NCBI GenBank assembly: GCA_015233375.1
Contig: JADFXW010000002.1
Coordinates: 1 to 44,105, forward strand
DNA: 44,105 nucleotides
Reading direction: 5' to 3'
Source of the DNA: Candidatus Omnitrophota bacterium
GTDB lineage: Bacteria; Omnitrophota; Gorgyraeia; Zapsychrales; Fredricksoniimonadaceae
Both the position numbers and the translations under genes were made by a program. Shown here one piece after another: positions 5,201 to 44,105 of this stretch. The notes beneath the pieces were generated by a model. The model did not search any database. It was not told where the DNA came from and worked only from the letters and a program-made list of their open reading frames with translations. How positions within the stretch are numbered: the first letter of the stretch is position 1; the number at the start of each line of letters is the position of its first letter.

Positions 5201-6186
5201 GATAAATTGAAATCTTTCAAAAAACCATGATACGCCAAGCAGCCTGGACAATGGCCTTTGCGGGCTTTTTCGGCATAGGCCTCTCTCTTTAAATCCAACT
5301 TTTTGGGCAACTGACCACTTAAAGAAACCTTCCCTGCAGAGGGCCAGTACAGGCATGGATACACCTCTCGATAAGCATTAATAAACAAGGACTTTTCTGG
5401 CGTCAAGCATTGATGGATACAAGATTTGCTTTTTGACAACAAAACCAATAAAGCTTTAAGCATAGGGACATCGACCCCCTTGGAGCCTTCCTTTAATATC
5501 TTTGTTATCTGTTCATTGACTTCTTGTATCATCATGGGTGTGAGCATGGCCAAACTTTTTGCTTGCGGCATATCCTGTCGATGATAATAAGCAGATACGC
5601 CAGATTCCATGATTTTAGGCGAAAAACGCGCGTTCAAACGTTTCGCTAACTCATAAACATACCCGATCTCTTTAAAATTGACCCTGTTGACAGTAAACTT
5701 CAATTCCAAAATAATCTGATGCCCAAAATTTTTTGATAACCATTCCATTGTTTTTAAGGTCTTCTGAAACGCCCCTTTCCCTCGAATCCTGTCATGGATA
5801 TGAGGGGAACCATCAAGGCTTATCCCAACGTGGAGCCCAGATAAATCTTGTTCACAGGTGGAAAAAACCTTTCGGATGGACTCAAAAAAGGCGGCATTGG
5901 TATACACACCAAATCCTGTAATCTTTCCCTGTCTATATAAAACCGACAGGAGCTCCAAAATTCGGCCGCAATTCTTATTTAAAAAAGGCTCGCCACCTGT
6001 TATAGAAACAAAATTAAGCGTGTATCTCTCAAGAAAGGCTTGCATCAGACGAGCTACAAAGGAAGCTGTCATCTCATGAAGTGTCTTCTCAGTCCATATC
6101 CCGCAATGCCCACAACGCAACTGACAACGATTGGTGATTTCAATAGTAATGTCATTAAGCAAGGGTTTGATTATGTTTTTTCCCAT
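5182..6186 (-). CDS. Radical SAM protein with SPASM/twitch-like C-terminus
   Basis: TNRCQLRCGHCGIW carries the CX3CX2C motif. The C-terminus has CIHQC..YPC..GHCPGC. Confidence 0.85.
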   Translation of the reverse strand: MGKNIIKPLLNDITIEITNRCQLRCGHCGIWTEKTLHEMTASFVARLMQAFLERYTLNFVSITGGEPFLNKNCGRILELLSVLYRQGKITGFGVYTNAAFFESIRKVFSTCEQDLSGLHVGISLDGSPHIHDRIRGKGAFQKTLKTMEWLSKNFGHQIILELKFTVNRVNFKEIGYVYELAKRLNARFSPKIMESGVSAYYHRQDMPQAKSLAMLTPMMIQEVNEQITKILKEGSKGVDVPMLKALLVLLSKSKSCIHQCLTPEKSLFINAYREVYPCLYWPSAGKVSLSGQLPKKLDLKREAYAEKARKGHCPGCLAYHGFLKDFNLSYLPIT

Positions 6187-16072: not shown

Positions 16073-16143
16073 TTAAACTCCATAATAGATACCCCGCCTT
16101 AACAAACATGGTTCTGATTATCTTTTAATTCACGCATGGCGTG

Positions 16144-16323
16144 TTTATAGACACATTGAAAGTTCTTTTAGAAACATTAAGGGATTTTTCGCCAAAAGTC
16201 GTCAAGGTTTTGCGCCCATTGTTTTCTAAAGCATCCTTAGTATATTTGGAAAACAATGGGCGCAAACCGTAGACGACGGCGAAAATATCCCGTTTCTAAA
16301 AGAACTTTCAATGTGTCTATAAA
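16144..16323. repeat. Long palindromic intergenic element E1 (subfamily I)
   Basis: TTTATAGACACATTGAAAGTTCTTTTAGAAAC...loop CTAAAGCATCCTTAGTATATTTGG...GTTTCTAAAAGAACTTTCAATGTGTCTATAAA. The outer and innermost stems are perfect; the mid-stem has conserved bulges. Homologous to E2 (33979..34160). Confidence 0.9.
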
Positions 16324-16331
16324 CCTCGCTC

Positions 16332-18415: not shown

Positions 18416-19840
18416 TTATGCCCCTACTCTATAGTAAAGTGTTGTTAACCAATTATTGGCGTAGGCTTCAAGCCAAGATTGGCGTTTACTGTAATCACAC
18501 CGAGGGTCATATTGGCTAATAAAACGCTTCCGAAGCCGCCGTAAAAAATCCGGCTTAAACAAAACCCTTGAAAGAACAACATATTCACGGACGCGTTCAA
18601 ATTCCCATGGACCAGTAAATTTCCATACACTTTTTGAACAAGCAATCAGGCCTTGTTTCTTTAAATATTCCAAACCTTCCTGACAATGGTCAAGTACGCC
18701 CATGCCAAAACGTTTCAAGAAACCTTGAGATTTAAGCCCCTCGGTTATCATCGCCATGGCCGCGAAATGAGACATCACGTAAGTCTTATCTTCTGGACAG
18801 GCGTCAACGCCTGAGAAATCAGACATGGAGTCAAGGCCACGTGTCCGATAAAAAATGGATCCTGGAAACTGCCCCATAACCAAGGGGCCAAAACCAACCA
18901 CTGCTGCTTCCATACGCGTATACAATTCTTCCTGATATTCTTCTCCTTCACTATCAAGGGCATAGCTGCCAAGCCCTTTGCGTTTAAAACCAGCTTTCTG
19001 AAGAATAGCTATTGCTGTTTTTATAATAGCGTCCCGTCTCTTAATAAAATCCAAAACCTCTTCTGATGGAGCACATAATGCTTTAAGATTTTTTCCGCAA
19101 TAAGGATAAACATGGACGATATTAACTCCTTCATCAAGAAGCATTTTAAGGTCTTTCTTAATCCCTTGGACCGTCTGATACGGCAAGCCAGCGATAAGAT
19201 CTGCATTCACATGAGGCACCCCAGCCTTCAGGGCAGAACGCACACACCAAAGCACTTGTTTTTTAGTCTGAAAGCGTGCCACTTGTTTGATAATCTTTTC
19301 ATCAAGAGACTGAACCCCAATACTCAAACGAAATAATCCTCGCTTCACCAACACATCCAGTTTAGCTTGACTTAAAGAAGAAGGATTTGCTTCAAAAAGA
19401 ATTTTACGCTCCCTTACAGGAAAATTCTTATCCAACGCATCTAAAACAGTATCTAACTGGCTTTCATCAAGAATGGATGGCGTCCCCCCTCCAAAACAAA
19501 GGGTGGACGTATCCATGCCTTTTAAAACAGGAGAAAAGAATTTCATCTGATTCTTTAAGGAAGTGATATAGGCATCAATGTCCAAAGGCTGTTTCAATAC
19601 ACGCCTTGCACAATAACAAAACGCGCATGAGTTCTCACAAAACGGGACATGGACATACAAATGGGCCTTGGCAATAGATTGGACAAAAACATCATTTTCT
19701 CGTGAATTGTTAATAGATCGAGCGACATCCTCCCACTTCGAAGAAGTTGCCAATACCCCAATCAGAGAATCTTCGCTTGTCAAAGGCTTGATCTCGTTTA
19801 AAAAAAATAAAAAATTGCGCAAGTCTTTATCGTTAGACAT
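18416..19840 (-). CDS. HemN-like (class C) radical SAM protein
   Basis: HVPFCENSCAFCYC and CFGGGTPSIL. The ORF track extends to 19891. I prefer the ATG at 19840 (MSNDKDLRNFLFFLNEI), which aligns with the paralog start MNHNSSDSEKKNFLFFLNKV and removes the 37-nt overlap. Confidence 0.8.
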   Translation of the reverse strand: MSNDKDLRNFLFFLNEIKPLTSEDSLIGVLATSSKWEDVARSINNSRENDVFVQSIAKAHLYVHVPFCENSCAFCYCARRVLKQPLDIDAYITSLKNQMKFFSPVLKGMDTSTLCFGGGTPSILDESQLDTVLDALDKNFPVRERKILFEANPSSLSQAKLDVLVKRGLFRLSIGVQSLDEKIIKQVARFQTKKQVLWCVRSALKAGVPHVNADLIAGLPYQTVQGIKKDLKMLLDEGVNIVHVYPYCGKNLKALCAPSEEVLDFIKRRDAIIKTAIAILQKAGFKRKGLGSYALDSEGEEYQEELYTRMEAAVVGFGPLVMGQFPGSIFYRTRGLDSMSDFSGVDACPEDKTYVMSHFAAMAMITEGLKSQGFLKRFGMGVLDHCQEGLEYLKKQGLIACSKSVWKFTGPWEFERVREYVVLSRVLFKPDFLRRLRKRFISQYDPRCDYSKRQSWLEAYANNWLTTLYYRVGA

Positions 19841-19854
19841 CTTTCTTAGCCTCT

Positions 19855-21288
19855 TTACACCCCCATTTGATAATACAATGCCATCAGCCAATGATTCGAA
19901 AAAGAATGAAGCAGGGTCTTCCCTTTCCTGTAATCCGTCCCTGGATTATATTGCTTAGCATAACGCTTTTGAAGCTTTAATAAAAAATCTTCACCATATA
20001 AAACCCGAGAAAGAGCGATATACTCCCGAAGGTGTTCTATCTCCCAAGAGGCTGAAAACTTCCACACTCCTTTGAAAGAGCCCACTAAACCTAAAGATTT
20101 AAGATAATTTAAGCCCCCTTTGCATGCCTGTTTCAAAGAAACCCCAAATCTATTTAAAAAAACTTTTTCATCAAGACCGTCCGTAATGATTGCCATTATC
20201 GCATAACGAGCCATCACGAAACTTAAATCTTGTGGACAAGCCTCAAGGCTGTTAAAACCATTATCTTGACCTGAAGGCTTGGTCCTGTAAAAGAGGGCGC
20301 CAGGAAATTGGCCTATAGAATACGCCCCAAAACCAAGCACCGCTGATTCAAGACGTGTATACGCTTCTTCCTGATGATCTTCTCCGGCTTGATTCAGGGC
20401 ATAAGCACCTAGCCCTTTGCGTTTAAACCCGGAAGCTTTCAAAACCTTTGCGGCTTCATGCATCATGTCTGAACGTCTTTTAAAGAAATCAACAAACGTC
20501 TCTTGAGGACCACACAATTCATTGACAGGTAAACTGCTAAAGGGATGAACATGAACAATGTTAGCCCCTTCTTGAACAACTTTCTTAATATCCTCCAGAA
20601 GCCCTTGGATGCTCTGGCCTGGTAACCCGGACATCAAATCCACATTCACATAAGGAACGCCCGCAGCTCTGGCTACATATAAAGATGATAAAACTTTTTG
20701 CCTGGTCTGTGAACGAGCCACCTGTTTTAAGACGCAAGCCTCTAGCGACTCAACCCCCATACTCAAACGATAAAGTCCCCTATCCAATAAAAGGTCCAGT
20801 TTTGACCTTGTCCAAGAAGAAGGGTGTGTCTCAAAAAAGATTTTACGCCTCTGGACAGGATATGCGGCATCAGCCGCATCAAGAAGGAAGGTTATTTGTT
20901 TTTCATCCAAGAGAGACGGGGTCCCTCCACCAAAACAGATGTGAGATGCATCCATTCCCTCACAAGCCTTGGATTGACGTTCCATCTGGCGTGCAACGGC
21001 GTGAATATAAAGATCCAAATCCCTCTTGCTTTTAAGTAATCCTCGGGCACAATGGCAAAACTTACACAATCTCTCGCAAAAAGGCACGTGCACATATAAT
21101 TGCAGCTTCTTAATGGATGAAACAAAAGAAGAGGTTCGTCTTGCCTTTTGAAGCAGACCTGCCAGGCTACTCCATCTGGCAGGCCGCGTCAAAGCGCCAA
21201 TCACAGGGTCCTCAATGCTGGGCGGATGAACCTTATTAAGGAAAAATAAGAAGTTCTTTTTTTCTGAGTCTGATGAATTGTGATTCAT
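19855..21288 (-). CDS. HemN-like (class C) radical SAM protein, paralog of 18416..19840
   Basis: HVPFCERLCKFCHC and CFGGGTPSLL. Colinear similarity with the downstream paralog along the whole length. Confidence 0.8.
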   Translation of the reverse strand: MNHNSSDSEKKNFLFFLNKVHPPSIEDPVIGALTRPARWSSLAGLLQKARRTSSFVSSIKKLQLYVHVPFCERLCKFCHCARGLLKSKRDLDLYIHAVARQMERQSKACEGMDASHICFGGGTPSLLDEKQITFLLDAADAAYPVQRRKIFFETHPSSWTRSKLDLLLDRGLYRLSMGVESLEACVLKQVARSQTRQKVLSSLYVARAAGVPYVNVDLMSGLPGQSIQGLLEDIKKVVQEGANIVHVHPFSSLPVNELCGPQETFVDFFKRRSDMMHEAAKVLKASGFKRKGLGAYALNQAGEDHQEEAYTRLESAVLGFGAYSIGQFPGALFYRTKPSGQDNGFNSLEACPQDLSFVMARYAIMAIITDGLDEKVFLNRFGVSLKQACKGGLNYLKSLGLVGSFKGVWKFSASWEIEHLREYIALSRVLYGEDFLLKLQKRYAKQYNPGTDYRKGKTLLHSFSNHWLMALYYQMGV

Positions 21289-33933: not shown

Positions 33934-33978
33934 CTTACGCGAGAACTTCATGTTTGTTACGGCGTGGATTATAGTGAG

Positions 33979-34160
33979 GTTTATGGACGCTGTAAAAGTT
34001 TTTTCCGAAACGGGATATTTTCGCCGTCATCTACGGTTTGCAACAATTGTTTTCTAAAGTATGCTTAGTATATTTGGAAAACAATTGTTGCAAAACCTTG
34101 ACGACTTTTGGCGAAAAATCCCTTAATGTTTCGGAAAAAACTTTTACAGCGTCCATAAAC
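33979..34160. repeat. Long palindromic intergenic element E2 (subfamily I)
   Basis: GTTTATGGACGCTGTAAAAGTTTTTTCCGAAAC...loop CTAAAGTATGCTTAGTATATTTGG...GTTTCGGAAAAAACTTTTACAGCGTCCATAAAC. Its core is homologous to the reverse complement of E1. Confidence 0.9.
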
Positions 34161-34182
34161 CTGCATCACGTGGATGGAAAGA

Positions 34183-34290
34183 AAATTGGCTCTTTGAAAT
34201 TTTGAATGGGTAGCAAAGCTTAATCTTACGCGAGGCCAAGCCACCCGCTAATCTATACCATTCCTACCCATTCAAAATTCAAAAGAATCA
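34183..34290 (+). repeat. Mosaic repeat unit: T-motif hairpin enclosing junction motifs ('empty' copy)
   Basis: CTTTGAAATTTTGAATGGGTAG ... CTACCCATTCAAAATTCAAAAG form a 22-nt stem. Positions 34183-34260 are near-identical to 43907-44105, except that the latter carries an extra GC-rich hairpin. Confidence 0.85.
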
Positions 34291-35043: not shown

Positions 35044-36128
35044 TGCGCGTAGGGATTGATGCTCGTGAAATCCAAAATGGCGTTTATACAGGGATAGGCC
35101 GGCCATTGGCTAATTTTCTTCATTATTTTGCTTCACTCGATAATGAGGATACCTGTGTCCTGTTTTCTGCTCAAGAAATCCCCATTGATTTTGGCCCTAA
35201 GGTCAAGAAGGTGGTTATCCCTGAAAAATTGACTTTTTATTGGGACCAGTGGCAATTACCAGAGCAGTTAAAGAAAGAGGGGGTTGAGATTTTTTATTCC
35301 CCTTATTATAAAATTCCTTTTTTAAAGCCTTGTCGTTGTGTCAGCTCCATCTTGGATTTGATGTATTTAACGTTTGGGCCTTACTACAAGCGTATGCCCT
35401 GGTGGTCTAAATTATATTACGCTACTTTTGGGAGGGCTTTTGCACATCGATCAGATAGGGTGTTGACATGCTCAGAATATTCTCAGAGAGATATCCAGCG
35501 TATTTATGGAGTGAAGCCTGAGAAAATCAAGTTAATTCCTTTAAGTTTGGGTGATATTTACCGACCAGAATCGGGCGCTTCACCAGTGAAGGGGCGATAT
35601 CTTTTGTATGTGGGTAATTTTAAGATACATAAGAATGTGATAAATATTATTAAGGCTTTTGCGTTATTAGAAAACGAGTTTCCTGATTTGAAATTGGTAT
35701 TAGCTGGCCCTCGGGAATACGAGTATAACGCCTTAGTGGCAAAGGTCCATGATTGTCATCTGGACCAGAAGGTCATTTTTTTAGGGAAGATTACCCAGGA
35801 AGATAAGCCTCATCTTTTATATAGCGGGGCAGAGGTGTTTGTGATGCCTTCTTTGTATGAGGGTTTTGGCCTGCCGCCTTTAGAAGCCATGGCTTGTGGG
35901 GTGCCGGTCGTTGCCTCGAATACAACATCGATTCCTGAGGTGGTTAAAGACGCGGGATTGCGGGTTGACCCTATGGATGTAAAAGCTATTGCTGAGGCCA
36001 TCAAGAGGATTTTGAAGGACCATGTTTTAAAGCAGGAGCTGATTGCCCGTGGTTTGCGTTATGCCAAGGAATACGAGGCCACAAAGGTGTCTCGAATGCT
36101 TTATGATTTTTTGAAAGGCTTAAGTTAA
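35043..36128 (+). CDS. GT4 glycosyltransferase
   Basis: YEGFGLPPLEAMACGVPVVASNTTSIPEVV. The TAA stop (36126-36128) begins junction motif TAATCTATACGCGCGG. Confidence 0.85.
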   Translation: MRVGIDAREIQNGVYTGIGRPLANFLHYFASLDNEDTCVLFSAQEIPIDFGPKVKKVVIPEKLTFYWDQWQLPEQLKKEGVEIFYSPYYKIPFLKPCRCVSSILDLMYLTFGPYYKRMPWWSKLYYATFGRAFAHRSDRVLTCSEYSQRDIQRIYGVKPEKIKLIPLSLGDIYRPESGASPVKGRYLLYVGNFKIHKNVINIIKAFALLENEFPDLKLVLAGPREYEYNALVAKVHDCHLDQKVIFLGKITQEDKPHLLYSGAEVFVMPSLYEGFGLPPLEAMACGVPVVASNTTSIPEVVKDAGLRVDPMDVKAIAEAIKRILKDHVLKQELIARGLRYAKEYEATKVSRMLYDFLKGLS

Positions 36129-36141
36129 TCTATACGCGCGG

Positions 36142-36321
36142 GGCTTGAGGGAGGGCTATTATGTTTTCAGAACAATAAGGGATTTTTGGCCAAATGTTTG
36201 CGAGGGCTTACAATAAATTTTTTCTAAATATACTAAGGATGCTTTAGAAGAAATTTATTGTAAACCGAAGCAAACGGCCAAAATATCCCGTTCAGAAAAC
36301 ATAATAGCCCTCCCTCAAGCC
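36142..36321. repeat. Long palindromic intergenic element E3 (subfamily II, inner segment inverted relative to E4)
   Basis: GGCTTGAGGGAGGGCTATTATGTTTTC...loop CTAAATATACTAAGGATGCTTTAG...GAAAACATAATAGCCCTCCCTCAAGCC. Confidence 0.9.
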
Positions 36322-36365
36322 TTGCGTGATTTACCCAATCAAAATTTTCAACAGAATTCATATAT

Positions 36366-37895
36366 ATGGTTTACTTTTCAAAAATATTATTGATGGTCTG
36401 GGGCATGAGATTATTGTTCGTGCTGATAGCAGCCGCCTCAAAATTAAATCAGTTCTTCCTTTTATCATCTTTTCTTTTTGTCCTCATGGTCTTTCATGCC
36501 TGTAATGGAGTCTGGTGTGGTGATTTTTGGATACATGCTGTGGTGGTGCGTGAGTTGGCCACACATCCGTTTGCCCCTCAACATCCTCAAATGTTAATGA
36601 ATGCGGCGCACGCCTTTTATTCACCTTATACGTTAGGTGTTGCCTGGCTTGTCAGGATATTCTCTTTAAGCCCCATCCAAGCCCTTTCTATGGCAGGGCT
36701 TTTTAATTTTCTTCTTTTTATGAGTGGTTTAAAAATATTTGTAACGCTTTTACTGGGGCCAGGCCGGCGGGCTTTTTATACGCTTTTATTGACCCTTTTT
36801 TTATGGGGGCAGACACCGTGGTTTTTTAGCGGTTTTTTTCATTTTAAGGTTTTAGGATATGTGTTGCCCTATCCATCAACCTTTGCCATGGCCCTTGTTT
36901 TTTATGGGTTATCAATGGTGATTTTATTTTTGCGCCAAAGAAGTTGGTGGATGCTTTTCGCCCTGTATTTGTTAAGTACCGTTGTTCTTTTGACGCACAC
37001 ATTAAGCGCTGTTGTTTTATATGTAGGGTTTTTGGCTCTTGCGGTTGGATGTTCACAAGAAAAAGTGATGGACGGTGTTTTAGTTCTTTTGCTTGTTCCA
37101 TTGTCTCTTTTCCTGGCAATGGCCTGGCCTTATTATTCCATATCACAACTTTTTATGACAAAAGGGGCCTTTATAGATGCTGAAAATATATGTATGTATC
37201 AAGGGGTGTGGGGGAGTATCGGACCTTCTTTTATCGGTTTCTGGCCTCTTTTTTTAAGGATAAAATCTAATAAAAGAGATCCATTAGTTTTAATGTTTAT
37301 AGCGTTAGCGTTTATTTATGTTTATGGGGGCATCACGGGTCATTATTCTTGTGGCCGGGTGATCTCCTTCTTGGTTTTTGTTTTGCATCTGGCTATTGCG
37401 GATTGGATTTCAAATCATGAAAGATTCTTTGAACAGAAGTTTATAGAAAAAAGTCTTTTTCTTTTGATTACGGGTTTCTTCATATTGGGGTTGTTTTATA
37501 ACTGTGCCCCCCAGGCAAGGGTGTATTGGCCTGGGATCAAGAATAGTTATAACCAGTATTTGTTCTTAGGAAAATATACCAAGCAATACGATGTCATTCT
37601 TGCTGACTTAGAAACCAGTGATTATGTGCCTGTGTTTGGAGGCAAGGTGGTGGCGTATAAGCATTCGAGACCTTTTGTGAAGGACAGTCAAGAACGAATC
37701 AATGATGTGAATGCCTTTTTTGACAAACAAGCATCTCTAAAAGAGCGTCAAGCAATCATCAATAAGTATCATGTTCATTTTATATTGATAAGTAAAGAAA
37801 AACAAAGTCAGGGGCCCTCAGTGAAGGATTTTGCTTCTTTGGGGCAGGCAGTATATGTTGATCAGAAGTTCGCGTTGATTAAATTTACACCGTAG
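36366..37895 (+). CDS. Polytopic membrane protein, GT-C-like architecture
   Basis: 509 aa with many TM segments and a soluble C-terminal domain of about 110 aa. Post-TM acidic/aromatic motif GDFWIHAVVVREL. The function is inferred only from architecture. Confidence 0.5.
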   Translation: MVYFSKILLMVWGMRLLFVLIAAASKLNQFFLLSSFLFVLMVFHACNGVWCGDFWIHAVVVRELATHPFAPQHPQMLMNAAHAFYSPYTLGVAWLVRIFSLSPIQALSMAGLFNFLLFMSGLKIFVTLLLGPGRRAFYTLLLTLFLWGQTPWFFSGFFHFKVLGYVLPYPSTFAMALVFYGLSMVILFLRQRSWWMLFALYLLSTVVLLTHTLSAVVLYVGFLALAVGCSQEKVMDGVLVLLLVPLSLFLAMAWPYYSISQLFMTKGAFIDAENICMYQGVWGSIGPSFIGFWPLFLRIKSNKRDPLVLMFIALAFIYVYGGITGHYSCGRVISFLVFVLHLAIADWISNHERFFEQKFIEKSLFLLITGFFILGLFYNCAPQARVYWPGIKNSYNQYLFLGKYTKQYDVILADLETSDYVPVFGGKVVAYKHSRPFVKDSQERINDVNAFFDKQASLKERQAIINKYHVHFILISKEKQSQGPSVKDFASLGQAVYVDQKFALIKFTP

Positions 37896-37904
37896 GAAAT
37901 TCCT

Positions 37905-37944
37905 TTTCCCCCTCTTTTTTTAAAGAGGGGGAAAGGGGGAGTTC
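37905..37944 (+). repeat. Hairpin plus G-rich (SD-like) unit, copy 2 of 2
   Basis: CCCCCTCTTT-tttt-AAAGAGGGGG then AAAGGGGGAGTTC. Same architecture as the minus-strand copy at 8828..8876. Confidence 0.7.
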
Positions 37945-38018
37945 TCGTTGAAGTTTGTCGTAAGCGCTAAGTTTAGTTTCTTGTATTTTCTTTGGTGGAC
38001 AAGCACTCTATGTGCGTA

Positions 38019-38197
38019 GGCTGGCGGGAGGGCTATTATGTTTTCGGAATGGGATATTTTGGCCGTTTGCGTCTGTTACAATAAATTTTTTCTAAAGCAT
38101 CCTTAGTATATTTGGAAAAAATTTATTGTAAATCCTCGCAAACATTTGGCCAAAAATCCCTTATTGTTCCGAAAACATAATAGCCCTCCCGCCAGCC
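38019..38197. repeat. Long palindromic intergenic element E4 (subfamily II)
   Basis: GGCTGGCGGGAGGGCTATTATGTTTTC...loop CTAAAGCATCCTTAGTATATTTGG...GAAAACATAATAGCCCTCCCGCCAGCC. Confidence 0.9.
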
Positions 38198-38244
38198 CTG
38201 CATGATTTACCCATTCAAAATTTTAAAGAGCCTTTAATTTTTAT

Positions 38245-39255
38245 ATGCTTAAATCAAATGAAGGTAGAATTCCAGAATTAGACGTCCTGCGCGGCTTGGC
38301 AGCGCTGGCTGTATTGTGTGTTCATTATACGACCAGTTATACGGAAGAATATTTTCCGCCTTATCCGACTTTGTTTGATTTTTCCAAAGGAGGATATGGG
38401 GTCCATTTGTTCTTTATGATTTCTGGTTTTGTGATTTTTATGACCTTGGAGAAGACAAAGAAACCCATGGATTTTTTTGTTTCAAGATTCTCAAGACTTT
38501 ATCCCGCTTATTGGGTTGCGGTTATTATTACATTTTGTTCTGTGAGGTTTTTTCATCTGCCTCTGCCTTTAGGGGATGTAACCAATAAGGAAGCCTTGGT
38601 TAATTTAACAATGTTCCAGGAATGGTTTGATATGCGTAATGTGGACAGGGCTTATTGGACGCTTACGGTGGAACTTTCTTTTTATATCCTTATGTTTGTT
38701 CTTTTTCTAAAAAAGGGCCTTAAACATATTGAATGGTTAGGCTTATTGTGGTTAATGGTCATGGTGGTCACCTCCAGGCTTTATTGGTATGGGCATATTC
38801 ATATGCCTATGTGGATAAGGCATTCTCAGATGTTAAATTATGGCCATTTATTTTTTGCGGGTATTTTATTTTATAATTTAAAGAATAAAGGTGATGTTTG
38901 GTATAGGTATTTAGGGCTGGGTCTTTGTTTGATCACTGGATTTTTAGTCAGGAAACATAGTGCAGACATATATTTTGAAGCAGCTTTTTTTATTATCTTC
39001 TTTCTTTTTATCAGAGGGTATCTGTCCTGGCTGGTGATGCGACCGCTGGTTTTTTTGGGGACTATTTCTTATAGCTTATATCTAACTCATGAGTATATTG
39101 GATTTATTATTATCAGGTATTTATTTTCAATAAAAATGAATGCCTGGGTGTGTTTTCTCCTCCCCACCGCATGCGCCATAGGATTGGCTACAACAATTAC
39201 ATATTTTATTGAAAAGCCGGCCATTAAATGGATAAGAAGGAAACCGTTGAGTTGA
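38245..39255 (+). CDS. Acyltransferase family 3 (OafA/NolL-like) membrane O-acyltransferase
   Basis: LDVLRGLAALAVLCVHY..GVHLFFMISGFVI. 336 aa and polytopic. Confidence 0.85.
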   Translation: MLKSNEGRIPELDVLRGLAALAVLCVHYTTSYTEEYFPPYPTLFDFSKGGYGVHLFFMISGFVIFMTLEKTKKPMDFFVSRFSRLYPAYWVAVIITFCSVRFFHLPLPLGDVTNKEALVNLTMFQEWFDMRNVDRAYWTLTVELSFYILMFVLFLKKGLKHIEWLGLLWLMVMVVTSRLYWYGHIHMPMWIRHSQMLNYGHLFFAGILFYNLKNKGDVWYRYLGLGLCLITGFLVRKHSADIYFEAAFFIIFFLFIRGYLSWLVMRPLVFLGTISYSLYLTHEYIGFIIIRYLFSIKMNAWVCFLLPTACAIGLATTITYFIEKPAIKWIRRKPLS

Positions 39256-39320: not shown

Positions 39321-39554
39321 ATGATAAAAATATCAAAAAAGCAGGCACTTATCTATAAACAAAGATGGAATCGTGTGCGGCAGGTTCAAAACCTGGAACT
39401 GGGGTCGGATTCTATCCTTTTAAAATTTAAACAACTTTGTTTCCTTATGGATTCCTTTTGCTTAGCACCTGTTGATCAGAACAGAGAAAATGAAATAAGC
39501 CGGATAAGGCAACATTGGAAAATTCTGAAAAAACAACACCATAATGCCAGTTAA
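39321..39554 (+). CDS. Hypothetical small protein
   Basis: 77-aa basic ORF with AGGA 8 nt upstream. Overlaps the next ORF by 11 nt. No motif recognised. Confidence 0.4.
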   Translation: MIKISKKQALIYKQRWNRVRQVQNLELGSDSILLKFKQLCFLMDSFCLAPVDQNRENEISRIRQHWKILKKQHHNAS

Positions 39555-39843
39555 GAAAAAAATATTATTTTTGAATGGGTTATTGCCTTTTGAAGAAGAA
39601 AGCATGAAGCGTAGGATATTTCACCAGATTGGGACTTTAAGAATCCCTTTGCCTACACCGGAAGATCTGATTATCATGAAAATGATCGCCCATAGGCCTC
39701 AAGATATGATAGATATAAAAGTTATTTTGGAGGCCTTTCCTAAGTTGGATCGCAAAAGGATCCAAAAATGGGTGAAAGAATTTTCTATTGCATTGGAAAA
39801 TTCAGAAATCTTGTCCGATTTGAAAGCTTTAATGAAGCATTAA
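39544..39843 (+). CDS. Hypothetical protein resembling only the C-terminal half of nucleotidyltransferase-fold (DUF2204/AbiEii-like) proteins; possibly a remnant
   Basis: PTPEDLIIMKMIAHRPQDMIDIKVIL matches the E-D-L-I..K..A.R.QD..D pattern I remember from the C-terminal region of such proteins. No N-terminal GG..D.D nucleotidyltransferase motif is present in any frame upstream. Confidence 0.35.
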   Translation: MPVKKKILFLNGLLPFEEESMKRRIFHQIGTLRIPLPTPEDLIIMKMIAHRPQDMIDIKVILEAFPKLDRKRIQKWVKEFSIALENSEILSDLKALMKH

Positions 39844-43906: not shown

Positions 43907-44105
43907 AAATTGTGGCTCTTTGAAATTTTGAATGGGTAGCAAAGCTTAATCTTACGCGGGGCCTGTCTTGGCCGGCGTGTTAACGTGCTCCTCTTGGCGA
44001 ATGGCAACCCTATCAGCGGCCAGAAAGGGGGTTTCCCTTTACCGCTGACTTGGGCACTGGTCGTGCGCTCGTTAACACGCCGGCCAAGACACCCGCTAAT
44101 CTATA
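43907..44105 (+). repeat. Mosaic repeat unit ('filled' copy), truncated by the window end
   Basis: AAATTGTGGCTCTTTGAAATTTTGAATGGGTAGCAAAGCTTAATCTTACGCGGGG ... CACCCGCTAATCTATA matches 34183-34260 on both sides of an inserted hairpin. Confidence 0.85.
43965..44090. repeat. GC-rich 126-nt hairpin nested in the repeat unit
   Basis: A perfect 21-bp outer stem GTCTTGGCCGGCGTGTTAACG / CGTTAACACGCCGGCCAAGAC. An inner hairpin TCAGCGG..AAAGGG-ggttt-CCCTTT..CCGCTGA. Markedly more GC-rich than its surroundings. Confidence 0.8.

Follow-up and report, generated by a model that had tools for sequence, protein, structure and literature searches.

Inverted interiors in a dispersed palindromic repeat family of Omnitrophota-type genomes

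The window analyzed here is the entire 44,105-bp contig JADFXW010000002.1 of a short-read metagenome-assembled genome (MAG) annotated as Candidatus Omnitrophica bacterium (locus tags HQL13_). It holds four hairpins of one palindromic repeat, here called H: E1 (16143–16324), E2 (33977–34162), E3 (36137–36326), and E4 (38019–38197). The central observation is that E3 and E4, both hairpins of ~190 nt, carry the same interior in opposite orientations. The inner 118 nt match E4 at 110/118 positions (93.2%) when E4 is reverse-complemented, versus 70.5%, with many gaps, when the two are compared directly. The inverted inner segment described in the first-pass annotation of this DNA is therefore borne out. 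E3 and E4 are recently related copies, 92–93% identical. The origin of their difference that we favor, at roughly even confidence, is an inversion of the 118-nt interior with its limits in the hairpin arms.

Opposite interiors of E3 and E4

Folded as single-stranded DNA, E3 and E4 reach −68.8 and −73.7 kcal/mol, respectively (z of about −16 versus dinucleotide shuffles, with 0/200 shuffles as good). The canonical form of H is defined as that read on the + strand of E3. From the outside inward, a 31–37 bp outer stem is followed by a 5-nt bulge (AATAA or ATTAA) in the 5′ arm, and then by GGGATTTTTSGCC paired to GGCSAAAATATCCC, with one additional A in the 3′ arm. A 4-nt bulge (AAAW) in the 5′ arm leads into an inner stem of 33 nt, interrupted by a small asymmetric internal loop, and the apex is a 14-nt loop, TATACTAAGGATRC. 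The asymmetry of the bulges and internal loop gives the palindrome a polarity. E3 is canonical on the + strand (170.8 bits versus 54.6 bits on the − strand) and sense to the genes, the minority orientation in the family. E4 is canonical on the − strand (163.5 bits versus 47.0 bits on the + strand) and antisense to the genes, the majority orientation. Gene orientations were taken from a simple ORF (open reading frame) caller.

The outer left arm of E3 (36142–36172) pairs with its right arm (36291–36321). Between them, the inner segment (36173–36290, +) comprises the bulge AATAA, GGGATTTTTGGCC, the bulge AAAT, and the inner stem with its internal loop, topped by the 14-nt terminal loop TATACTAAGGATGC (36229–36242, +). 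The arms of E4 are 31 nt long and 100% complementary. The inner segment compared with that of E3 lies at 38050–38166 (−), and its loop reads GCATCCTTAGTATA on the + strand (38097–38110). The 31-nt outer arms, including GAGGGCTATTATGTTTTC and GAAAACATAATAGCCCTC, are 90.3% identical between the two copies in either orientation, as expected for a palindrome. Two differences in the outer stem separate E3 from E4, both of them doubly compensated transversions, and none is uncompensated; eight further positions differ in the interior. Hairpin boundaries from minimum-free-energy folds are too noisy to be used for target-site duplications.

The flanks provide the frame against which the interiors are inverted. 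On the right, E3 and E4 match directly at 36/49 positions, and at 24/27 over the first 27 nt (YTGCRTGATTTACCCAWTCAAAATTTT), compared with 40% in the inverted comparison. The right flank of E3 (36322–36348, +) consists of TTGCGTGATT followed by a motif, M (TACCCAATCAAAATTTT), and runs direct relative to the right flank of E4 (38198–38224, +), which consists of CTGCATGATT and motif M (TACCCATTCAAAATTTT). On the left, the sequence TCTATACGCGCGG of E3 (36129–36141, +), which begins directly after the stop codon of a GT4 gene, is only weakly matched by TCTATGTGCGTAGG of E4 (38009–38022, +). The left flanks agree at 17/34 positions directly versus 23/47 inverted, and TCTAT and GCG are the only words in common. 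The annotation had described both flanks as the same and in the same orientation. That description holds on the right but is weak on the left, where the strings it quoted agree at 10/14 positions. Given this poor left match, the arrangement of like flanks around an inverted interior depends mainly on the right flank.

The H family and the complementarity of its arms

Copies of H were sought in public collections by an exact-pattern scan for the loop and its closing pairs, so that copies with diverged loops are missed in the counts. Among species-representative genomes, the scan found three loci: an "uncultured Planctomycetales" MAG contributed two and a Candidatus Omnitrophota MAG the third. 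It also matched 22 metagenome loci, of which three are chance matches in coding sequence (leaving 19 real ones) and three are duplicates of other loci. All real matches, which add about 20 copies to those of the window, share the H architecture, and their sources are Omnitrophota-type MAGs and peat or wetland metagenomes. An nhmmer profile of 22 copies gives the canonical strand 148–189 bits and the opposite strand 29–65 bits. Viral contigs yielded no H copies, a 16-mer scan of them giving chance matches only.

The family falls into subfamilies with a common core and entirely different outer arms. The inner ~120 nt are kept, whereas the outer arms are perfect within a copy yet unrelated between subfamilies. 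One subfamily can occur in different sources, as E2 is 91–92% identical to the copies in L012 and L020. A second loop type of 11 nt, TGAAGAGAATC in canonical orientation, replaces the 14-nt loop in L015:12090–12264 (L015b) and in both copies of L026 (L026:4093–4301 and L026:5473–5670). Both loop types are purine-rich on the canonical strand, and they may co-occur on one contig (L015). Elsewhere, H adjoins unrelated housekeeping genes, including those for TrpS, ScpA, RuvB, MurJ, UvrC, IF-2, DnaK, and Lnt. These varied neighbors, together with the insertion polymorphism described below, define H as a dispersed, insertion-polymorphic noncoding repeat. A literature search found no described repeat family of this kind in Omnitrophota. 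H is a previously undescribed family of dispersed noncoding palindromic repeats of Omnitrophota-type genomes. It behaves like a DNA element resembling miniature inverted-repeat transposable elements (MITEs) or REPINs, hairpin-forming doublets of repetitive extragenic palindromes (REPs), and is not bound to any gene function. On metagenome contig L025, an inverted pair of the L020 hairpin (L025:1291–1494 and L025:2788–2991) carries inverted flanks, a tRNA-Arg, and many indels; L025 was set aside as probably a fold-back chimeric contig rather than a true inverted duplication. A truncated half-copy at L009:150–210, on a contig that also carries a further copy (L009:9675–9864), consists of the right arm only, fused to another repeat.

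The two arms of H vary together. The consensus structure has 70 pairs, with 96% of cells paired; 41 of the 70 pairs have changed on both sides, and 0/500 shuffles attain the observed covariation. RNA structures under selection freely use G·U pairs. In the inner helices of H, G·T pairs occupy 6 of 968 cells (0.6%), and many pair replacements are double transversions, such as AU/UA or CG/UA/GC at one position. Strong covariation with almost no G·T pairs and with double transversions indicates that the arms act as Watson–Crick DNA copies of each other. In the copy at L009:9675–9864, the inner-stem internal loop now exactly complements the opposite arm, a conversion that amounts to a "correction" of the kind known from quasipalindromes. 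The unpaired positions (bulges, internal loop, and terminal loop) are conserved while the stems covary. Unchecked homogenization would erase such features, so selection probably maintains them. By analogy with REP/RAYT hairpins (RAYT, REP-associated tyrosine transposase) or IS200-type hairpins, we infer that the conserved bulges and loops may be recognition features for mobilization as single-stranded DNA; alternatively, they may serve in RNA. Covariation in repeats of this type, however strong, does not count as evidence of RNA structure; missing G·U pairs are the telltale sign.

The other two copies in the window display a second, smaller inversion. E1 and E2 belong to the same subfamily, which differs from that of E3 and E4. 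E2 is fully canonical on the − strand. E1 has stems that are canonical on the + strand, and it scores 112 bits on that strand and 69 bits on the other. When the E1 region is reverse-complemented, it aligns colinearly with the E2 region, ~45 nt of left flank included, save for a 22-nt stretch within which the + strands match. This stretch (at least 16227–16248 in E1) is the loop plus its four closing pairs, including a characteristic C·A mismatch, and its end points fall within the perfect 17-bp inner stem. Flanks and stems of E1 and E2 are alike in orientation relative to their genes, and E1 and E2 are therefore a second flip pair that insertion orientation cannot explain. With the loop written as TATACTAAG..., both bulges lie in the 5′ arm in 21 of 22 distinct copies (26/27 when multiassembly loci are counted), and E1, the sole loop-flipped copy in the family, is the only exception. 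A small hairpin beside E1/E2-type copies (CCACGCCTTGACAGRCGTGG) was considered as a further flip and rejected, because it can be read as two separate small hairpins, one on either side.

The interiors of whole copies can likewise be compared with the words beside them, with A denoting the canonical and B the reverse-complement interior on the named strand. Four copies at nonorthologous loci in two genomes are followed by the tail TGCGTGAWTTA: E1 (read in gene direction), L026a, and E4, all with interior B, and E3, with interior A. In eight copies the 5′ motif CATGCGTCTA stands before interior A; in L026a it stands before interior B. Orientation relative to flank words is strongly lineage-specific (8:0 versus 1:5). 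Both isomers relative to homologous flanks thus recur in the family, with one isomer dominating each lineage.

Comparison with relatives establishes that H copies come and go. An operon orthologous to that around E3 and E4, encoding a metallophosphoesterase, GT4, a 5xx-aa membrane protein, and an acyltransferase, is found in L026 (MAG GCA_015233675.1) and in L027–L029. Its GT4 is 69% identical to that of the window, with the same C-terminus, and its acyltransferase is 63% identical; its genes abut or overlap, with gaps of 0–55 nt. E3 and E4 are absent from these syntenic operons, and L026a is absent from the window. The blocks 36129–36365 (E3) and 37896–38244 (E4) are therefore lineage-specific insertions. 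No other assembly of the species came up in exact-protein look-ups with four window proteins and P0001; the nearest relatives, at 52–69% protein identity, are without E3 and E4. At the site orthologous to that of E2, 3′ of a GT4 gene whose product is 67% identical, L026 carries a copy, L026b (5473–5670), in the same orientation as E2 (33977–34162). L026b belongs to a different subfamily, has a different loop, and is 64% identical to E2, so copies turn over. This indicates that a hot spot has been recolonized or converted.

Origin of the opposite orientations

The proposed inversion would proceed by one arm templating the other, which keeps the arms complementary at the DNA level. Template switching during replication, or recombination between the arms, would homogenize them, and the same process could also invert whatever sits between two perfectly matching arm segments. 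With end points in the 27–31-bp perfect outer arms, as at E3/E4, the 118-nt interior would be flipped relative to the tail TGCRTGATTTA and motif M. With end points in the 17-bp perfect inner stem, as at E1/E2, the loop alone would be flipped. Such flips would be rare mutational events that are fixed and heritable by descendant copies, not a programmed or frequent switch. There is precedent for these steps. Template switching between the arms of inverted repeats homogenizes the arms and inverts the spacer, in a process that is reversible and favored by long arms (PMC8604942). Quasipalindrome mutagenesis is documented in E. coli (PMC7202029), and small hairpin-associated inversions are recurrent in plastid genomes (PMC6824564, PMC12928735). 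Arm-bounded inversion is favored here because of the scarcity of G·T pairs, the compensated differences between E3 and E4, the correction in L009, and the inverted loop of E1. Such inversion does occur in the H family, where it is rare and appears to be fixed. The recombination or template switching between arms that the first-pass annotation invoked is thus a credible origin, in line with the E1/E2 loop flip and with arm-to-arm copying, although a competing explanation by insertion stands beside it. Both the template-switch mechanism and the flipping of E3 or E4 in place, instead of opposite insertion, are proposed rather than observed steps.

The competing explanation, which we consider possible but somewhat doubtful, is that H is mobile and inserted independently, in opposite orientations, at a GCGT-containing site in a P/M module just upstream of genes. 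The shared flanks would then be the target and not part of the element, and no inversion would have occurred at E3/E4; a local hop of one copy would suffice. The flank module gives this explanation substance. Motif M, whose window form is TACCCATTCAAAATTT, occurs five times in the window, on the + strand at 34265–34280, 36332–36347, and 38208–38223 and on the − strand at 34197–34212 and 43923–43938. Two inverted copies of M bound a 104-nt palindromic repeat, F (copy 1, 34187–34290), whose 48-nt center resembles the E3 flanks minus the hairpin and so forms a hairpin-less counterpart of the E3/E4 flanks (TTAATCTTACGCGAGGCC^AAGCC...TAATCTATACC..TACCCATTCAAAATT). A second copy of F (43913–44105) holds an unrelated 128-nt hairpin centrally, at CGCGRGGCC^AAGMCA, the position at which the homologous E3 flank holds its hairpin. 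The contig ends inside this module (…GCTAATCTATA). The word TAATCTATAC of the E3 left flank recurs in F copy 1 (34249–34258) and at the contig end (44096–44105).

Several observations weigh against inversion and toward insertion. The flanks form a repeat module of their own, which is also found without a hairpin (34248–34290) or hosting another one (43964–44091); insertion in opposite orientations therefore stays a serious rival. The M of E4 matches the inverted M arm of F at 34188–34212 in 24/25 positions (96%) and that of E3 in only 20/25 (80%), which suggests that flanks and hairpins have had separate histories. Direct GCGT or TGCRT words bracket many, though not all, H copies and are partly palindromic. 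If they are target-site duplications, opposite-orientation insertion saves one event relative to copying plus flipping. In the 1–2 nt beside the perfect stems, E3 and E4 match better in canonical than in + orientation by inspection of the sequences, and the eight copies of one subfamily include no flips relative to the stem base. Finally, whole-unit orientation relative to genes varies (4 sense and 19 antisense), and at least L001, a minority-orientation copy among the 4 of 23, is inverted as a whole unit, so that insertion of H in both orientations does happen. The different subfamilies (64% identity) at the E2/L026b site also speak for insertion turnover. Other findings are difficult to reconcile with insertion as the explanation of E3 and E4. 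It leaves the loop-only flip of E1 unexplained. The TGCGTGAWTTA tail moves with H to unrelated loci in two genomes, and so seems to be part of the unit, while its orientation relative to the interior differs in E3. The association of orientation with flank words is lineage-specific, not random. Insertion would also make the outer arms the terminal inverted repeats, yet it is the core that is conserved between subfamilies and not these arms. No transposase was found among the contig ORFs or in the scanned neighbors of the copies.

A structured RNA offers a different account of the two orientations, and an improbable one. H would act inside operons in RNA processing or stability, or would be a small RNA produced from the adjoining M, and the orientations would be two functional classes. 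The conservation of unpaired nucleotides alongside covarying stems would fit such a role. So would the strand bias: among copies whose flanking genes are co-directional, 19 have the canonical strand antisense to these genes and 4 have it sense (two-sided binomial p ~0.003 under a random-orientation model). In seven copies M sits immediately 5′ of canonical H. A related motif, GAACAAATTTATCCCTTACAAT, accompanies many H copies in other genomes and is present in L001, L006, L013, L022, and L024. These motifs stand 10–45 nt ahead of start codons, both beside hairpins and on their own, and M may be a promoter or 5′-untranslated-region element of the lineage, although its spacing is unlike that of a sigma-70 −10/−35 pair. 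Set against an RNA role are the near absence of G·U pairs despite massive covariation and the many double transversions, as well as the occurrence of both orientations, the variation in loop sequence, and the variable presence of H among close syntenic operons. Scanned over the whole window at gathering thresholds, Rfam gave no match at the elements, and an E-value search of 35900–38500 returned only sub-threshold hairpins of the generic miRNA-precursor type.

The first-pass annotation had raised the possibility that each locus switches state. Such active switching finds no support, whether E3 and E4 arose by inversion or by insertion. As a programmed or frequent flip-flop, H would toggle the strand form or loop that is transcribed in a surface-polysaccharide operon, giving phase variation independent of an invertase; we regard this as very unlikely. 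Two isomer pairs in one 44-kb surface-glycan cluster, and long perfect arms, would suit a switch. The loop is Shine–Dalgarno (SD)-like in one direction (UAAGGA) and anti-SD-like in the other (UCCUUA), and each canonical hairpin carries a sigma-70-like (C/T)TTACA-16-TATACT site on its canonical strand (36207–36234, +; 38132–38105, −; 34094–34067, −), so an orientation-dependent effect is conceivable. The −10 hexamer of this site lies in the terminal loop. Promoter-like sites across the region are, however, at a chance-level count, and the type-2 loop is without the hexamer. Further evidence speaks against frequent switching. The polarity of loop relative to stem is uniform in all distinct copies but one, and each of three loci recovered from independent assemblies shows a single state (L001 = L018, L003 = L023, and L015 = L016). 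E2 and L026b share an orientation at their orthologous site, the contig ORFs include no recombinase, and H adjoins all kinds of housekeeping genes. It is equally far-fetched that H copies are recombinase-independent two-level DNA toggles, of the loop alone or of the whole interior, whose state sets the strand form transcribed in operons. If they were, a purine-rich SD-like loop with a downstream-pointing TTTACA-16-TATACT would alternate with a pyrimidine-rich anti-SD-like loop, and flips at E2–E4 would give heritable, reversible variation in surface-glycan expression in an uncultivated phylum. Should both states coexist in a population, H would be an example of invertase-free DNA switching. 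The broader caution is that a palindromic repeat found in opposite orientations between similar flanks need not be a switch.

An assembly artifact is hardly credible. When an inverted repeat exceeds k in length, a de Bruijn graph does not fix the orientation of its spacer, and a short-read assembler working on a metagenome could in this way mis-orient an interior. The perfect arms here (27–31 bp at E3/E4 and 17 bp at E1) are shorter than the usual final k-mer, which makes mis-orientation unlikely, and E3 and E4 differ at the eight other interior positions and so are not one collapsed sequence. That k would be 55, the metaSPAdes default, if the MAG comes from the study in PMC7602337.

Genomic setting and relation to known systems

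By Pfam scans of its ORFs, the window encodes radical-SAM enzymes, glycosyltransferases, acyltransferases, and other enzymes of a surface-glycan cluster; several ORFs are without any Pfam match. The same scans identified no recombinase, integrase, or transposase among the ORFs of the contig. A cobalamin riboswitch (RF00174) at 1505–1637 (−), scoring 32.3 bits and barely over the gathering score, borders a cluster rich in radical-SAM and B12-binding enzymes. Two neighboring paralogous radical-SAM genes at 18416–21288 form repeats of 73–74% DNA identity with a spacing of 1439 nt (families D2 and D5). A 99-aa ORF at 39544–39843 weakly matches DUF6036 and AbiEii nucleotidyltransferase and probably represents a gene fragment in the glycan cluster. 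The gene for a 509-aa membrane protein (36366–37895), homologues of which are annotated as alpha-1,6-mannosyltransferase by some sources, is enclosed by E3 and E4, which form a 190-nt inverted repeat with 126-nt arms of 94% complementarity. A G+C-rich, terminator-like hairpin at 37900–37939 (CCCCCTCTTTTTTTAAAGAGGGGG) separates this gene from E4. The inverted pair E3 and E4 could in principle permit inversion of the whole gene, which is in its ancestral orientation.

Three kinds of hairpin-based or inverting systems were considered and rejected as identities for H. An integron attC site is excluded because H is ~190 nt long versus 57–141 nt, because its center and not its base is conserved, and because the contig ORFs include no integrase; its arm ends (GTTCAGA, GTTCCGA, and GTTTCGG) may be compared with the attC core RYYYAAC ... 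GTTRRRY. A parvovirus-type telomere is excluded by the position of H between chromosomal operon genes, by its absence from viral contigs, and by the lack of a nickase among the contig ORFs. H does share with the inverted terminal repeats of adeno-associated virus (AAV) and with poxvirus telomeres (PMC8956199) the existence of reverse-complement isomers in a palindromic hairpin with asymmetric bulges. Those isomers belong to the telomeres of linear genomes and arise in each round of replication through hairpin transfer and a nickase. By contrast, H is internal and chromosomal, has no associated Rep or NS1, and its isomers are rare. Invertase switches such as fimS and hin resemble H in that inverted repeats enclose a segment whose two orientations both occur, close to genes for surface structures. 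The absence of a recombinase among the window ORFs eliminates this assignment, and H further differs in that its segment has no promoter above chance and in that it is dispersed beside housekeeping genes.

Closer parallels lie among mobile intergenic repeats. REPINs, or REP dimers, are hairpin-forming REP doublets mobilized by RAYTs, with GTAG- and CGTC-tagged families (PMC3733652, PMC3116915). H resembles them in comprising two inverted units that form one long hairpin with conserved bulges, in lying intergenically between unrelated genes, in having subfamilies within a genome, and in sometimes being nested in other palindromic repeats. The arms of H, however, are ~88 nt long versus 20–40 nt for a REP, and they have no GTAG tag. 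Many copies have a GCGTC word beyond the 5′ arm, but it is no REP-type tag beside an 8–13-bp stem as in the definition of PMC3733652. The central loop is among the best conserved parts of H, whereas the spacers of REPINs are variable. No RAYT or other transposase, including IS200/IS605-like Y1 transposases, was found among the contig ORFs or in the scanned neighbors of other H copies. ERIC, Correia, and RUP elements, which are MITE-like, share with H their imperfect palindromes of 100–200 bp, their noncoding nature, and their occurrence in both orientations in transcribed intergenic regions, and H has a comparable presence/absence polymorphism between relatives at orthologous sites. Classical MITEs show the reverse pattern of conservation to that of H, whose outer arms differ between subfamilies while the inner ~120 nt are conserved, and no parent insertion sequence was found for H.

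The closest match to the inversions themselves is template-switch inversion. As in that process, the inversion in H is bounded exactly by perfect arms, the arms are Watson–Crick complements with imperfections that have been "corrected", and the change is recurrent, reversible in principle, and not in need of a recombinase. Documented spacer inversions mostly span a few to tens of nucleotides, compared with 22 nt in E1 and 118 nt, with a nested hairpin, in E3/E4. The flips in H also take place inside a mobile repeat family, so either isomer can be propagated. H belongs to a known kind, that of palindromic intergenic repeats subject to inverted-repeat spacer inversion, and what is new is the family itself and its nested, two-level isomerism. 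Its mode of conservation is unusual, in that an asymmetric core and loop are kept while the outer arms are free to change yet stay perfectly paired. The H family records, in one place, arm homogenization, quasipalindrome correction, and nested arm-bounded inversions at two scales.

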